In this document: positions 2,990 to 6,769 of the stretch, piece by piece
Numbering within the stretch: the first letter of the stretch is position 1
How the letters are laid out: every line of letters begins with the position of its first letter
The notes under the pieces: model-generated
Told to the model about the DNA's origin: nothing
The model's input: the letters and a program-made list of their open reading frames with translations, nothing else
Databases searched by the model: none
IMG/VR virus record: IMGVR_UViG_2713896907_000005
Coordinates: 1 to 6,883 of that record
Length of the DNA stretch: 6,883 nt
From: a virus
Taxonomy: Duplodnaviria; Heunggongvirae; Uroviricota; Caudoviricetes
Strand: one strand, 5' to 3'
Position numbers and translations under genes: made by a program

Positions 2990-3067
2990 GTGGATTGATC
3001 CAGTAATGACCTCAGAATTGCATATCAATTTGCTTAGAGTCCCCGGCGGCCACCGGGGATTTTTTCT
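2990..3067 (+). ncRNA. oop: oop-like antisense RNA, antisense to the cII 3' end
   Basis: About 78 nt between the pO-like promoter and the intrinsic terminator at 3040-3068. The stretch gatccagtaatgacctcagaa matches the lambda oop RNA 5' region as I recall it. Ends are approximate. Confidence 0.6.
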
Positions 3068-3308
3068 TTGTGATTCCATCAAGCGCATACTTAAAAGCCC
3101 TGCTAATCGGACTGATGTCTGATGCCATTCCGAAAGCACACAAGACAGAAGCAATAAATCTCCAGTCCGTTCTGCTTATCTTCGATTCATGACAGCCAAT
3201 CATCTTTGCCAGACCTCGCTGGGTAATCGCTGACAGGTTGATGAGTAAATCTGTTTCTGCGCGATCAACGTCGCGCTGTGATAGTTTGCTGTAACTTGTT
3301 CTTTCCAT
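3012..3308 (-). CDS. cII: cII-family transcriptional activator (diverged from lambda cII)
   Basis: 98-aa ORF between nutR and O. HTH-region similarity ESKISRTDW vs lambda KSQISRWKRDW; C-terminal tail KKKSPVAAGDSKQIDMQF vs lambda KKRPAATERSEQIQMEF. The 3' end overlaps oop as in lambda. Confidence 0.7.
   Translation of the reverse strand: MERTSYSKLSQRDVDRAETDLLINLSAITQRGLAKMIGCHESKISRTDWRFIASVLCAFGMASDISPISRAFKYALDGITKKKSPVAAGDSKQIDMQF
3040..3068 (+). terminator. Intrinsic terminator (oop terminator, to-like)
   Basis: 7-bp stem tccccgg (3040-3046) / ccgggga (3053-3059) with a 6-nt loop, followed by attttttcttt. Confidence 0.75.
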
Positions 3309-3317
3309 TTCTTAAGA
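3286..3317 (+). promoter_or_regulatory. Candidate pRE-like, cII-dependent promoter
   Basis: Direct repeat ttgc-N6-ttgt (3286-3299) resembling the TTGC-N6-TTGC cII box, with a -10-like taagat (3312-3317) downstream. Located at the cII start and reading antisense through cro towards cI, as lambda pRE does. Confidence 0.35.
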
Positions 3318-3393
3318 TTTCCAATAGTGAATAGTTAGTTGACTGGTATGCGTGGAAACGCATATGGCCTGAGTTGGTCAGATATCTTGGGGC

Positions 3394-3439
3394 TCGCTTT
3401 TCAGCGACGTAGGACGAATGTCCGTTGTTACAAAGAGCG
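3394..3439 (-). promoter_or_regulatory. nutR (boxA plus boxB) N-utilisation site
   Basis: On the minus strand: boxA cgctcttt (rc of 3432-3439), a ~24-nt spacer containing a small hairpin, then boxB tcgcTGAAAAgcga (rc of 3394-3407; 5-bp stem with GAAA loop). Same architecture as the nutL candidate. Confidence 0.55.
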
Positions 3440-3446
3440 GGGTTAC

Positions 3447-3647
3447 TTATGCTGTTGTTTTTTTGTTACTCGGGAAGGGTTTTACTTCTTCCGCATAAAC
3501 GCTTCCATCAGCGTTTATAGTTAAAAAAATCTTTCGGCCTGCATGAATGGCCTTGTTGATCGCACTTTGATACACGCCAAGATCTTTAGCCGTCTTGGTT
3601 TGACCAAAGCGCATTGCATAATCTTTCAGGGTTATGCGTTGTTCCAT
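3447..3647 (-). CDS. cro: Cro repressor
   Basis: 66-aa [69 protein letters not shown] matches lambda Cro. Confidence 0.95.
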
Positions 3648-3671
3648 ACAACCTCCTTAGTACATACAGTC

Positions 3672-3700
3672 ATTATCACCGCCAGAGGTAAAAGAGTCAA
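3672..3700 (-). promoter_or_regulatory. pR promoter
   Basis: On the minus strand: -35 TTGACT (rc of 3695-3700), 17-bp spacer, -10 GATAAT (rc of 3672-3677), upstream of cro. Confidence 0.85.
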
Positions 3701-3737
3701 CATCCGCGGTGTTAGATATTTATCCCCTGCGGTGATA
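3674..3737. promoter_or_regulatory. Right operator OR1-OR2-OR3 (cI/Cro binding sites)
   Basis: Three 17-bp sites: OR1 tatcaccgccagaggta (3674-3690), OR2 caacatccgcggtgtta (3698-3714), OR3 tatcccctgcggtgata (3721-3737). OR1 is identical to lambda OR1 as I recall it; OR2 and OR3 differ at a few positions. Confidence 0.9.
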
Positions 3738-3741
3738 GATT
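3713..3741 (+). promoter_or_regulatory. pRM promoter
   Basis: -35 tagata (3713-3718), 17-bp spacer, -10 tagatt (3736-3741). The cI ATG at 3748 follows within a few nt, consistent with a leaderless cI transcript as in lambda. Confidence 0.8.
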
Positions 3742-3747
3742 TAACGT

Positions 3748-4547: not shown

Positions 4548-5126
4548 TTGAGTATACCAACTGTCTCTCTATGGAATGAGATGGGGTTAATCCCCCCAAT
4601 AGACGAGGCTGATCCTACAAGCCATACTCGTTCCCCATACAAAATGGATATAGTACGCTTTGTTAGTACTTTTTCGCTTAGCCCTGCAAGGATTAAAATC
4701 CTTAAGGGTTTTCTTAACTTTCGTGTTTCACTCACTCAAGCAGGGCTAGTTGAAGGTTTTCAGTGGGTAGATGGAAGCTTCACAGAACATATTGAACTTA
4801 TTGAAAAAAGGCCACCGAATGATGTCGATGTTGTGACCTTTTTTCAATTCAGTAATGGCGATAATGATGCAATCGTAATCGGTAGAAAGCCAGAGCTATT
4901 TGATCATGATTTTGTTAAGAAGGAGTTTTTCGTAGATTCCTACTTCCAAGAACTTAATCTACCAAGTCATGAGCTTGTTGAAATGACTGTATATTGGTAC
5001 AGTATGTGGGCACATAGACGCGATCTGTCGTGGAAGGGATTTATCCAAATCCCGTTAAACCCACAACTTGATGTTGTGGCAATGACTATACTTAATTCGG
5101 CTACTACTGAGGGGGTCAAACAATGA
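4548..5126 (+). CDS. Hypothetical protein A, first gene of an uncharacterised two-gene module at the rexA position; weak nucleotidyltransferase-like motif
   Basis: 192-aa ORF. Start assigned to TTG at 4548 with aagg SD (4537-4540); the in-frame ATG at 4581 is an alternative. Stop overlaps the gene B start (ATGA at 5123-5126). AT-rich relative to flanking genes. Contains GS-x14-DVDVV, reminiscent of the GS...DxD nucleotidyltransferase signature; this is weak. Confidence 0.7.
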   Translation: MSIPTVSLWNEMGLIPPIDEADPTSHTRSPYKMDIVRFVSTFSLSPARIKILKGFLNFRVSLTQAGLVEGFQWVDGSFTEHIELIEKRPPNDVDVVTFFQFSNGDNDAIVIGRKPELFDHDFVKKEFFVDSYFQELNLPSHELVEMTVYWYSMWAHRRDLSWKGFIQIPLNPQLDVVAMTILNSATTEGVKQ

Positions 5127-6052
5127 ATCGTAATGATTATGTTTTCGCTCTCAGTGAGCGCGAGCAAATAAGTAATCTATTAAAAAATATGCCAACAAGT
5201 CATTCTATTAGCCGAAAAAGCTTAGAAGACCGTCTGGAGAAAGTTGAGCGATTAATTTCACAAGCTGACGTTCGAGAACATGAACCTACGCATGCTGTGT
5301 TAACTTTTAGAGGCCCAACAGTAGTTGGCACGCATGGCATTTCAGCAGTATTTGGAACAAAAGCTATATCTTGTTTTAATGATGCAATAGCTTACTTGGC
5401 AACCTCTTTCAATGGCCCACTTCCTGCATCAGGCAAGATACCAAACATAGAAAATAATCATCTCATGATTACCGCGTCAGCCCGTGGTTCTTTCGGATTC
5501 GTACTTGAAGAGTTTAGACCTGATGCTCCTCTTGAATTCGATGAAGAAACCCCAGTAGCAAAAGCTATTAATAAGGCCAGAAAAATATTTCAGGCAAGCT
5601 TGGATAATGATGATGAAGAATTGTCTGATGCTATAGAAAACTTAGACTCTCGGGCCTTAGATAAAATCAGAGCATTCATTCATTATCTGCATGAAAATAA
5701 AACAGTTTTTACACTTAAAAGCCAAGGTTTTAGCATCGTTTTTAGAGAGCCAAAACAGCTTGAAGCTGTATATCAACATCTCAGCAATGATAACATTCAG
5801 CAGGAAAAAATTATTGAGAACGTTATATTTTTGGGAACTCTTCCTAACAAGCGCCAATGTGAATTTATAGTTTTAGGTAACACTGATATCAGAACCGCTA
5901 GCATTGACAAAGCTGTAGATGACCCAGATATTATAAACAAGCACTTAGGAAGCGTTGCAACAGCCACGTTCCTGAAAAAAACTGTTGGTAAGGGCAAGCC
6001 CAGATACACTCTGGTTTCTCGACCTCAATGGGATATTAAATCAATCGATTAG
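5123..6052 (+). CDS. Hypothetical protein B, second gene of the uncharacterised two-gene module at the rexB position
   Basis: 309-aa ORF, ATG at 5123 overlapping the gene A stop. AT-rich codon usage. No similarity I can recognise and no obvious transmembrane segment. Followed 15 nt later by an intrinsic terminator. Confidence 0.75.
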   Translation: MNRNDYVFALSEREQISNLLKNMPTSHSISRKSLEDRLEKVERLISQADVREHEPTHAVLTFRGPTVVGTHGISAVFGTKAISCFNDAIAYLATSFNGPLPASGKIPNIENNHLMITASARGSFGFVLEEFRPDAPLEFDEETPVAKAINKARKIFQASLDNDDEELSDAIENLDSRALDKIRAFIHYLHENKTVFTLKSQGFSIVFREPKQLEAVYQHLSNDNIQQEKIIENVIFLGTLPNKRQCEFIVLGNTDIRTASIDKAVDDPDIINKHLGSVATATFLKKTVGKGKPRYTLVSRPQWDIKSID

Positions 6053-6066
6053 AATGAGCCCCTTCA

Positions 6067-6094
6067 GCCCGGCCTCCGCGCCGGGTTTTCTTTT
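6067..6094 (+). terminator. Intrinsic terminator ending the cI operon (tImm-like)
   Basis: GC-rich stem cccggc (6068-6073) / gccggg (6080-6085) followed by ttttctttt (6086-6094). Confidence 0.75.
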
Positions 6095-6244
6095 ACCATC
6101 AGTCCGTCAAAAACACACCTAACGAATTGTATTTATTGAATAAATATAAATCACACTTATCACATTGCGCAATTCAGCTCCTACACATCCAGACTAGCTC
6201 TGCAAAACTTTAAAAAAATAAATCAATAGTAAAAACATGCACAT

Positions 6245-6305
6245 AACCATTTGCGGTAATATTTTATCTCTAGCGGTGTTGACGAAAATACCTCCGGCGG
6301 TGATA
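6245..6305. promoter_or_regulatory. Left operator OL3-OL2-OL1
   Basis: OL3 aaccatttgcggtaata (6245-6261), OL2 tatctctagcggtgttg (6265-6281), OL1 tacctccggcggtgata (6289-6305). All close to the lambda OL sites as I recall them. Confidence 0.8.
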
Positions 6306-6307
6306 CT
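6279..6307 (+). promoter_or_regulatory. pL promoter
   Basis: -35 ttgacg (6279-6284), 17-bp spacer, -10 gatact (6302-6307). The surrounding sequence ggcggtgttgac...ggcggtgatact...cacatcagcaggacgc parallels lambda pL. Confidence 0.85.
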
Positions 6308-6353
6308 AAACACATCAGCAGGACGCTGGAAGCTAAATGGAACAGACTGGCAG

Positions 6354-6398
6354 GCTCTTTAAACAACGTCGACTCTCGACTACGTGGCTGAAAAGCCA
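6354..6398 (+). promoter_or_regulatory. nutL (boxA plus boxB) N-utilisation site
   Basis: boxA gctcttta (6354-6361), a 23-nt spacer containing the small hairpin gtcga-ctc-tcgac, then boxB tggcTGAAAAgcca (6385-6398; 5-bp stem with GAAA loop). Flanks ACAACG and CTACG are shared with nutR. Confidence 0.55.
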
Positions 6399-6496
6399 GA
6401 TCACCCAACCACATAAGCAGTGGGATGCAATGCCGAAGCAACCGTCTCAGGAGGAGCTTCGAGATTGCATCGCCAAAGTTTATTCGGGAGGAATCT

Positions 6497-6769
6497 ATGT
6501 CCAGAAAAACAGAATTTAAAGGCACCGCAGCTTCTCGCCGTAGAGCTCGTCGCGCAAATCTGCAAAGTCAGGAGGCGATTAGCTCCGACAAGCTACACAG
6601 GCCAACCCCTTCACGAGTGGTCTTGCAATGCAAGCGCAAACCAGCAATGAGAGCAGAAGTTATAACTCTGACAACGTTGACCAGAAAATATGAAGGTTCA
6701 ACTTGTCTTCCGAACGTAGCTCTTTACGCGGCAGGCTACCGGAAATCAAAACAACTGACAGCGAGGTAA
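6497..6769 (+). CDS. N: N-family transcription antitermination protein (non-lambda specificity; arginine-rich N-terminal motif)
   Basis: ATG at 6497 with strong SD gggagga (6486-6492); 90 aa. N-terminal arginine-rich motif GTAASRRRARRANLQ. C-terminus ...VALYAAGYRKSKQLTAR resembles P22 gp24 / phage 21 N-type proteins as I recall them. First gene downstream of pL-nutL. The ORF-track start at 6425 is an upstream in-frame extension without an SD. Confidence 0.8.
   Translation: MSRKTEFKGTAASRRRARRANLQSQEAISSDKLHRPTPSRVVLQCKRKPAMRAEVITLTTLTRKYEGSTCLPNVALYAAGYRKSKQLTAR

Follow-up and report, generated by a model that had tools for sequence, protein, structure and literature searches.

How can the repressor, Cro and operators of a lambda-type immunity region lie between an N gene, nut sites and a cII gene that are not those of lambda, while N at one end still matches nutR at the other? 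The question is raised by positions 1 to 6,883 of IMG/VR virus record IMGVR_UViG_2713896907_000005 (Caudoviricetes), a stretch of 6,883 nucleotides (nt) that we call the window. It reads as the reverse complement of the lambda map, and the span under study is 2990–6769. We believe that this span very probably holds the early control region of a lambdoid prophage and that it was put together from modules of a standard, interchangeable kind. Judged by its alignments, four modules would be joined in it: the lambda-type replication module ren-P-O; a 933W/phage-21-type cII with a nutR that combines a generic boxA with a VT2-Sakai-type spacer and boxB; a lambda-type immunity cassette (cro, OR1-3, pR/pRM, cI, a cargo slot, tIMM, OL1-3 and pL); and a VT2-Sakai-type nutL with N. 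The features are as follows.

1095–1385, 1382–2083 and 2080–2979, minus strand: ren, P and O, respectively, the lambda-type replication module with four iterons (O of 299 amino acids (aa), as in lambda); 95.7% to lambda, ungapped
2954–3069, plus strand: oop-like antisense RNA unit, with a pO-like promoter (2954–2982) and a terminator hairpin (3036–3063) plus T run; promoter and terminator scan
3012–3308, minus strand: cII (98 aa, 933W/phage-21-type allele); Pfam Phage_CII PF05269, 1.9e-30
3394–3439, minus strand: nutR; alignment with lambda, 933W, Sakai, ev017, 21 and HK106, and folds
3433–3440, minus strand: right boundary of the immunity cassette, an 8-nt overlap CCGCTCTT that is the boxA core; BLAST end points and alignment
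3447–3647, minus strand: cro; Pfam Cro, 5.9e-35
3672–3741: OR region, with pR at 3672–3700 (minus strand), OR1 at 3674–3690, OR2 at 3698–3714 and OR3 at 3721–3737
3713–3718 and 3736–3741: pRM hexamers, adjoining the leaderless cI start
3748–4461, plus strand: cI (237 aa, lambda-type repressor); Pfam HTH_3 plus Peptidase_S24
4548 or 4581 to 5126, plus strand: cargo gene 1, DUF6932 protein; Pfam DUF6932, 2e-26
5123–6052, plus strand: cargo gene 2, 309-aa protein, whose start overlaps the stop of cargo gene 1
6066–6244, plus strand: tIMM terminator (6066–6087 plus T run), then the conserved OL-side segment; terminator scan
6245–6312, plus strand: OL3 at 6245–6261, OL2 at 6265–6281, OL1 at 6289–6305 and pL at 6279–6307
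6313–6326, plus strand: left limit of the immunity cassette, the 14-mer CATCAGCAGGACGC with which the pL transcript begins
6354–6398, plus strand: nutL; alignment and folds, 99% to VT2-Sakai
6497–6769, plus strand: N (90 aa, VT2-Sakai type); Pfam N_peptide PF25694, 3.4e-32, full length

The window was aligned by BLAST with the lambda reference (J02459), and segment maps were also made for 933W, VT2-Sakai, ev017, lambda imm21, HK106 and two Escherichia coli prophages. Positions 1029–3073 (ren, P, O and the 3' tail of cII) matched lambda 40636–38592 at 95.7% without gaps, positions 3433–4461 (nutR boxA, cro, OR and cI) matched 38255–37227 at 91.4%, also ungapped, and positions 6068–6326 (tIMM, OL and pL) matched 35824–35570 at 75%. 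The rest of the span gave no alignment with J02459, and this includes N, nutL, the nutR boxB, the greater part of cII and the pair of genes that occupies the rexAB slot. The O, P and Ren proteins were 98.0%, 97.0% and 93.8% identical to those of lambda, respectively. A first-pass annotation of this DNA had described cI, cro, OR, OL, O, P and ren as almost exactly lambda, which is true of Cro, OR1, O and P only; codons 141–237 of cI are at 84% nt, and the OL operator stretch is also at 84%. Its view that N, both nut sites and cII clearly differ from lambda stands for N (35% identity over 63 aa), cII (32%) and both boxB elements, but not for the nutR boxA, which is common to lambda. It had also expected at least three junctions within about 3.5 kb, one of them inside or beside a candidate defence cassette. 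Relative to lambda we found five (approximately 3018–3073, 3433–3440, 4461, 6066–6068 and 6313–6326) plus an identity drop inside cI near 4168, and two of them coincide with the ends of the two-gene cassette, one at the cI stop codon and the other at tIMM. The mosaic pattern was therefore confirmed by pairwise alignment with lambda, 933W and the others.

Lambda-level identity of the right arm stops near 3018, just within the cII 3' end, and the BLAST alignment trails at 69% to 3073. A fresh junction inside cII was considered and rejected. From ren through nutR and up to the end of cro the right arm is continuous with 933W (1029–3452, 94.7%) and with ev017 (1029–3440, 96.3%), and only lambda differs there; therefore, the apparent cII junction is a peculiarity of lambda, not an event in the present lineage. 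At a finer scale, 2980–3018 was 92% to lambda, and 3019–3073 was 100% to 933W and 69% to both lambda and ev017. This 55-nt end of cII, together with the oop terminator, is a small patch typical of this linker, which joins the replication module to cII. The CII protein was 94%, 90% and 82% identical to those of 933W, VT2-Sakai and phage 21, respectively, and about 32–33% identical to that of lambda. Its gene lies where the CII family is expected, in the nutR–O interval with the 3' end overlapped by the oop-like unit on the opposite strand. By analogy with the annotation of EF120461, a putative CII site of pRE (TTGC-N6-TTGT) was placed at 3286–3299, and CII would activate pRE at this site within the 5' end of its own gene.

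On the other flank, the N protein was 100% identical to N of VT2-Sakai and of many other phages and about 41% identical to the 127-aa 933W/H-19B/HK106 type, and the pL leader including nutL was 99% identical to VT2-Sakai at the nt level. The N start, preceded 6 nt upstream by a GGAGG Shine-Dalgarno sequence, lies 191 nt downstream of the pL -10 hexamer. The arginine-rich motif of N is GTAASRRRARRANLQ, and the alignment showed that its C-terminus CLPNVALYAAGYRKSKQLTAR is common to 933W N. This protein is often annotated as "hypothetical protein" in RefSeq. We also noticed an open reading frame (ORF) of 60 aa at 6337–6519 (plus strand), which overlies nutL and overlaps the N start. It has a full-length match to phrog_3137 and is called in many assemblies, but a frameshift interrupts it in E. 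coli WP9-S17-ESBL-11. The call probably reflects a conserved leader that does not code for protein, and would then be an artefact of annotation. NCBIfam gave no match for N, cII, cro or the cargo proteins, and an Rfam scan of the whole window with E up to 1 yielded nothing beyond a chance hit to a snoRNA, with oop and nut recognised by no family.

Between these flanks the limits of the immunity cassette could be read closely. At the right boundary, lambda-type homology extends as far as 3433 and Sakai/ev017-type homology sets in at 3440; at the left boundary, Sakai homology starts at 6313 and lambda homology ends at 6326. The left boundary sequence is identical in lambda, Sakai, phage 21 and HK106, and 12 of its 14 bases are found in ev017. 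We propose that the moving unit would be the immunity cassette cro-OR-cI-cargo-OL, lying between two conserved boundary sequences inside the nut sites, and that CCGCTCTT on the right and CATCAGCAGGACGC on the left would be common to every lambdoid phage. Homologous exchange at both points would swap the immunity type, with N, the nutL boxB and the nutR boxB staying together, and mismatched N/boxB combinations would fail to antiterminate and be lost. N and nutR would thus match across the whole immunity region because both cassette boundaries lie inside nut sites. The cargo slot, from the cI stop codon to tIMM, would be a second, nested exchange unit, and the cII 3' end with oop would be the linker to the replication module.

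The two nut sites are built alike, with a boxA near the rrn consensus, a short spacer hairpin and then boxB.

nutR, minus strand: boxA CGCUCUUUGUAACAA at 3425–3439, spacer hairpin GGAC-AUUC-GUCC at 3412–3423, boxB UCGCU-GAAA-AGCGA at 3394–3407
nutL, plus strand: boxA GCUCUUUAAACAA at 6354–6366, spacer hairpin GUCGA-CUC-UCGAC at 6368–6380, boxB UGGCU-GAAA-AGCCA at 6385–6398

For both boxB elements the predicted fold has 5 bp in the stem, a closing U-A pair and a loop of only the four bases GAAA, whereas lambda and 933W/P22 have pentaloops. The two stems differ from each other by a compensatory G-C/C-G change. The spacer and boxB of nutR were 100% identical to VT2-Sakai, so that only these two parts are foreign to lambda at this site. 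A PF25694 N protein, one nut site on each of the pL and pR transcripts and matching boxB loops are what is found in N-type antitermination systems. After induction, the pL and pR transcripts would carry boxA, the spacer hairpin and the GAAA-loop boxB, and the arginine-rich motif of the Sakai-type N would bind this nut RNA and allow read-through of terminators. In longer folds (6340–6410, plus strand; 3375–3450, minus strand), boxB pairs through its 3' arm with the boxA region (GCUC...GAGC) at both nut sites, giving an alternative long hairpin that is a predicted competitor of the boxB stem-loop. Alternative NUT RNA structures were reportedly described for H-19B by Neely and Friedman in 2000.

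The matching of N with boxB was surveyed in IMG/VR, which was scanned with two nutR boxB variants (at least 120 loci each); N and nutL were typed where the locus was long enough. The counts below, and those that follow from this survey, are among the matches listed.

933W-type N: nutL GCGCU-GACAA-AGCGC, nutR loop GACAA; 86 loci
Sakai-type N: nutL UGGCU-GAAA-AGCCA, nutR loop GAAA; 84 loci
N concordant with nutR, nutL not located: 10 loci

No discordant combination of N, nutL and nutR was found in these approximately 180 loci. In two of them (L065 and L096), the body of N is 933W-like, the arginine-rich motif is Sakai-like (GSASGRRRERRAALQ) and the loops at both nut sites are GAAA; therefore, the boxB loop tracks the RNA-binding motif and not the remaining N protein. 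The sequences on the cro side fell into nine clusters, and both N/nut types occurred inside four of these, always in concordant form. In the lambda-type cro cluster, 38 loci carried the 933W type and 4 carried the Sakai type, with the window counted, and Sakai-type flanks were found with at least 7 cro-region clusters. The results showed that immunity types combine freely with N/nut types, which is what cassette exchange at two conserved boundaries predicts. The first-pass annotation had argued that N and nutR must have been exchanged together. The matching of N with boxB agrees with this, but a separate exchange of each is not the simplest account; on the simpler one, the cassette would move and N and boxB would stay put.

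Such separate exchange could be imagined if lambda had kept its immunity and replication genes and if N-nutL and nutR-cII had each been exchanged, in two separate events that were selected together. Both flanks are indeed foreign when compared with lambda, while cro-cI and O-P-ren are lambda-like, and the perfect covariation of N with boxB is equally expected from co-selection. However, the cro-cI of the window is not the lambda allele, from which it is approximately 9% diverged with no intermediates in 5426 genomes, and the right arm runs on continuously with 933W and ev017 from ren through nutR. Phage ev017 holds both flanks and a lambda-type O-P-ren with a different immunity, and Sakai-type flanks are seen beside seven or more cro clusters. 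One double crossover at the two conserved boundary sequences accounts for the pattern in fewer events. Two separate replacements are, in our judgement, quite improbable, and we prefer the exchange of a whole immunity cassette.

The GAAA loop itself deserves comment. The boxB class of lambda has a GCCCU-GAARA-AGGGC pentaloop and an N motif with Trp18; the present boxB elements have neither that stem nor that loop, and the N motif AASRRRARRANLQSQE, which resembles lambda AQTRRRERRAEKQAQW, has Glu in place of Trp18. Of the characterised boxB loops, that of lambda is a GNRNA pentaloop, that of P22 is a GACAA pentaloop whose C is looped out, and that of phage 21 is a CUAACC hexaloop (PMC12027372, PMC12550061). 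The nutR of H-19B has been reported with two hairpins, and the arginine-rich motif of H-19B N is RSRRRER (PMC3526286). We suggest, only tentatively and with more doubt than conviction, that the Sakai-type N motif (G[ST]A[AST][SG]RRR[AE][RH]RAxLQ) and the GAAA-tetraloop boxB form a fourth natural class of N-boxB recognition. If so, the class would be without the looped-out base of the solved complexes and might have different needs for host factors. In lambda, the looped-out boxB base is reported to matter for the engagement of NusA (Chattopadhyay et al. 1995 and Legault et al. 1998). Our literature search returned no description of a GAAA-loop boxB or of Sakai-type nut sites, which is weak evidence of novelty as the early literature lies mostly outside its coverage.

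The immunity genes carried by the cassette were then compared with those of lambda. The Cro protein was identical to lambda Cro (66/66 aa), with 7 synonymous changes and a synonymous divergence (dS) of 0.19. The cI gene was 94.5% identical at the aa level and 89.9% at the nt level, with 13 substitutions (T3A, Y61S, K71N, R83K, T121A, K124R, T155A, R197K, V202I, Y211F, M213I, S221V and K225R), of which four (T3A, Y61S, K71N and R83K) are in the N-terminal domain or arm and none is within the helix-turn-helix. Divergence is uneven along cI: dS was 0.26 over codons 1–140 and approximately 1.2 over codons 141–237, with the drop near 4168 (codon 140). The ratio of nonsynonymous to synonymous divergence (dN/dS) was 0.04–0.07 throughout cI and 0–0.07 across cI and cro, indicating strong purifying selection. 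Because dS is uneven along the gene and dN/dS is low throughout, the sequence points to a further old exchange within cI, with purifying selection continuing.

The tripartite 17-bp operators showed 0, 3 and 1 mismatches to lambda in OR1, OR2 and OR3, respectively, and 2, 1 and 2 in OL1, OL2 and OL3, respectively. Their spacing is that of lambda, 24 and 23 at OR and 24 and 20 at OL. The promoter scan gave TTGACT/17/GATAAT for pR and TTGACG/17/GATACT for pL; the hexamers of pR, pRM and pL are conserved save one change in the pL -35, the leaderless cI start is kept, and the 100-nt stretch between cro and cI differs from lambda at 8 positions. A lambda-type Cro and CI DNA-binding domain, together with tripartite OR and OL that overlap pR/pRM and pL, are the marks of imm-lambda at the sequence level. 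Among phage records, all 36 of 36 full-length matches to cro-OR-cI were at 90–95% (lambda, HK97, HK106, mEp234, SfI and ev099 included). Among complete E. coli genomes with a full-length match, 8 were at 99% or more, the best match of 608 records was at 90–95%, and none lay between. On these alignments, the cro-OR-cI of the window is a rare, discrete branch of the lambda-type immunity region that is approximately 9% diverged in DNA from lambda, and every sequenced phage with lambda immunity is about 91% identical to it.

Would such a branch still have the immunity specificity of lambda? We believe that it likely would, because Cro and OR1 are identical, the helix-turn-helix of CI is unchanged and the promoter geometry is conserved; CI and Cro would then act at the six operators as in lambda. 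One could instead propose that these lambda-like genes and operators form a distinct immunity specificity or a functionally altered switch, which is compatible with modular assembly. The rarity and discreteness of the allele speak for this proposal, as do the changes in OR2, OL1 and OL3, the 13 cI substitutions with four of them in the N-terminal domain or arm, and the high divergence of codons 141–237. The identity of Cro and OR1, the helix-turn-helix free of substitutions, and the operator spacing and promoter hexamers (one pL -35 position apart) argue for the lambda specificity, and the dN/dS values indicate that the same function has been conserved. A distinct specificity or altered switch is thus unlikely, and we retain lambda specificity as the reading of this cassette.

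The cargo genes of the cassette replace rexA-rexB exactly. The lambda-immunity relatives all diverge at the cI stop codon (4461) and reconverge at the tIMM hairpin (6066), no rexA or rexB was present downstream of cI, and 4462–6067 had no DNA homology with lambda. The promoter pRM would transcribe cI together with both cargo genes, ending at tIMM. The DUF6932 protein matched the PADLOC candidate PDC-M63A at 2.2e-10, and a nucleotidyltransferase-like G-S ... D-V-D motif was read in it by eye. It and the 309-aa protein matched phrog_9194 and phrog_18731, respectively, both of unknown function. The 309-aa protein had no match in Pfam, NCBIfam, PADLOC or the PDB, the PDB sequence search returned no relatives of either cargo protein, and an AlphaFold2 model of the DUF6932 protein made without an alignment was unusable, with a predicted local distance difference test score (pLDDT) of 32. 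Just beyond the cargo, within 6068–6244 (tIMM-OL3), the blocks AATTGTATTTATTGAA, GCAATTCAG and AAAAAATAAAT are identical to lambda, HK106 and Z1323HEC0477 despite 75% identity overall. Degnan et al. in 2007 reportedly proposed a conserved segment beside OL as a possible regulatory element, and these short conserved blocks fit that segment.

Several points weigh against the account given so far. The perfect covariation could partly reflect shared ancestry of the flanks and not selection against mismatch. Many of the IMG/VR loci are near-duplicates, so independence exists only at the level of the 4 immunity clusters that hold both N/nut types. With three changes in OR2 and a diverged cI C-terminal domain, the switch could differ quantitatively from that of lambda. 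We infer from sequence conservation the lambda immunity specificity, the activity of N at the present nut sites and the use of pRM and tIMM by the cargo genes. Finally, the direction and order of past exchanges are not recoverable from present sequences.

The age of the arrangement could be judged from its occurrence in other genomes. The span 2990–6769 is found as one uninterrupted alignment at 99.0–99.4% in 8 of 5426 complete E. coli genomes (including AR_0017, E10, CE10 and WP9-S17-ESBL-11) and at approximately 99% in 6 IMG/VR contigs. Where a contig extends beyond cII, and likewise in most of these E. coli genomes, replication genes of another type adjoin the block, with the join near 2972–3051. 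The junctions are not events of this DNA, since the span is already a single block in all these places. All junctions are old, and the whole block circulates nearly unchanged among Escherichia prophages. Uniform identity to one reference phage, which would have spoken against a mosaic, is nearly what these bacterial prophages show, but no reference phage does so.

The exact CII protein was found in 138 blocks of an assembly collection, and eight of these places were read. All had the same order, namely N, the 60-aa ORF (uncalled in one), the 309-aa gene, the DUF6932 gene, cI, cro, cII, O, P and ren. Such recurrence bears on the idea that the patchwork is an assembly chimera, joining reads of two prophages from one genome. 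Neither the phage collection nor the RefSeq set of complete E. coli genomes has a record that spans 80% or more of the window, and a 37-mer spanning the O/cII junction was matched exactly by none of the viral, genome and metagenome contigs. In contrast, the eight independent assemblies carry 1029–6820 in one piece at 98.3–98.8% (seven of the eight) or 1029–6770 (the eighth). GenBank CP043266.1, a complete chromosome, covers 686–6883 in one piece at 98.6%, with approximately 3 mismatches in 2990–6769, and every junction recurs in other independent genomes. A unique O/cII junction, once considered, was likewise rejected: the same arrangement was found through the CII protein, and 2 mismatches in 3001–3100 explain the failure of the 37-mer. 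On the eight assemblies and CP043266.1 the chimera was rejected, and we consider it next to impossible; the modular assembly of a real prophage region is the reading that we keep.

Comparison with named systems places the region in a known group. The wild imm-lambda phages HK106, mEp234, HK244, HK542, HK544, mEp332 and CL707 (GenBank EF120455–EF120461) form a class reportedly described by Degnan et al. in 2007. In most wild isolates with lambda immunity, different N and CII alleles are said in that work to flank the immunity region, and the flanking elements are said to be extensively mosaic with microhomologies, with a segment beside one operator region conserved. Like the window, these phages have lambda-type cI, cro, OR1-3, OL1-3 and tIMM flanked by a non-lambda N and a 933W/21-type cII, and other cargo replaces rexAB between the cI stop and tIMM (hicAB plus one ORF in HK106). 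In EF120461 (HK106), the order is nutL boxA/boxB, pL, OL1-3, Timm, non-rex cargo, cI, pRM, OR1-3, pR, cro, nutR boxA/boxB, pRE and a non-lambda cII, the same layout as in the window. They differ in their canonical lambda cro-cI allele, to which the window is 90.5–91.4% identical, and in cargo; in HK106 and mEp234, N is of the 127-aa 933W type and the boxB loops are GACAA. The mosaic studied here is a further member of this known wild imm-lambda mosaic class and differs in N/nut subtype, cargo and immunity allele. A paper that cites Degnan et al. terms the cI-N interval a hotspot of mosaic diversity (PMC8585504).

The window has the gene order, Cro, operator number and spacing, promoters and nutR boxA core of lambda itself, with O, P and Ren at 94–98% aa. 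Lambda differs in its boxB loops (GAAAA/GAAGA) and stems, in the spacer hairpin that the window adds, in N, cII and the rexAB genes that the window does not have, and in the C-terminal third of cI. VT2-Sakai (NC_000902, a Shiga toxin 2 (Stx2) phage) shares N, the nutL leader, the nutR spacer and boxB and a similar cII, and has its own cro/cI immunity, its own cargo and an HK022-type O with a DnaB-like P. Phage ev017, and also ev207, 2G7b and PhiR57_1, shares both flanks (1029–3440 as given above, and 6315–6765, nutL-N, at 98.4%); ev017 differs in its immunity cassette, of which only the cI C-terminal domain aligns (87%), in its cargo and in a lambda-like cII 3' end/oop patch. In 933W/H-19B, the continuous ren-P-O-cII-nutR arm, the boxA/spacer hairpin/boxB architecture and the N C-terminus are alike, whereas the GACAA loop, the 127-aa N with an RSRRRER...LKAKA motif, an O with six iterons and the immunity are different. 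HK106 and E. coli Z1323HEC0477 combine a lambda-type cro-cI with other N or cargo. Closest are the prophages of AR_0017, E10, CE10, WP9-S17-ESBL-11 and CP043266.1, which share cII-nutR-cro-cI-DUF6932-309aa-OL-nutL-N at 99% or more. CP043266.1 also has a lambda-type O-P-ren and differs by approximately 4–5% within 1100–2500, whereas in AR_0017, WP9-S17 and similar prophages toprim/HTH replication genes take the place of O-P.

Beyond the replication module, the following gene and ORF were seen.

227–673, minus strand: ninB; Pfam NinB
696–1022, minus strand: ORF of 108 aa in the ninB-ren interval, with a hydrophobic N-terminal segment; phrog_5903 of unknown function, no Pfam match

Among the loci compared, the 108-aa ORF was found only in E. 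coli Z1323HEC0477 and CP043266.1. The 70 nt at 1029–1098, in the ren-nin interval, were 99–100% identical in lambda, 933W, VT2-Sakai, HK106, ev017 and the E. coli prophages; they are conserved regardless of the adjoining replication module and are apparently a further linker at a module boundary.

The region has little weight as a discovery, and its value is that of a clean worked example of how a lambdoid regulatory region is assembled. The labels suited to the block are lambda-type immunity (variant allele), VT2-Sakai-type N/nut sites and 933W/21-type cII. Of possible interest to specialists is an allele, diverged in nature and with changes in OR2, of the genetic switch that has been studied best. 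This rare cI/operator allele, with OR2 weakened and the C-terminal domain diverged, may represent a natural form of the lambda switch whose cooperativity or specificity is altered. There is also a widespread boxB with a true GNRA tetraloop, in strict covariation with one arginine-rich motif. The slot between the cI stop codon and tIMM holds accessory, possibly defence, genes. For the lambdoid phages, a cassette bounded inside the nut sites would mean that immunity can be swapped without breaking the match of N with boxB.

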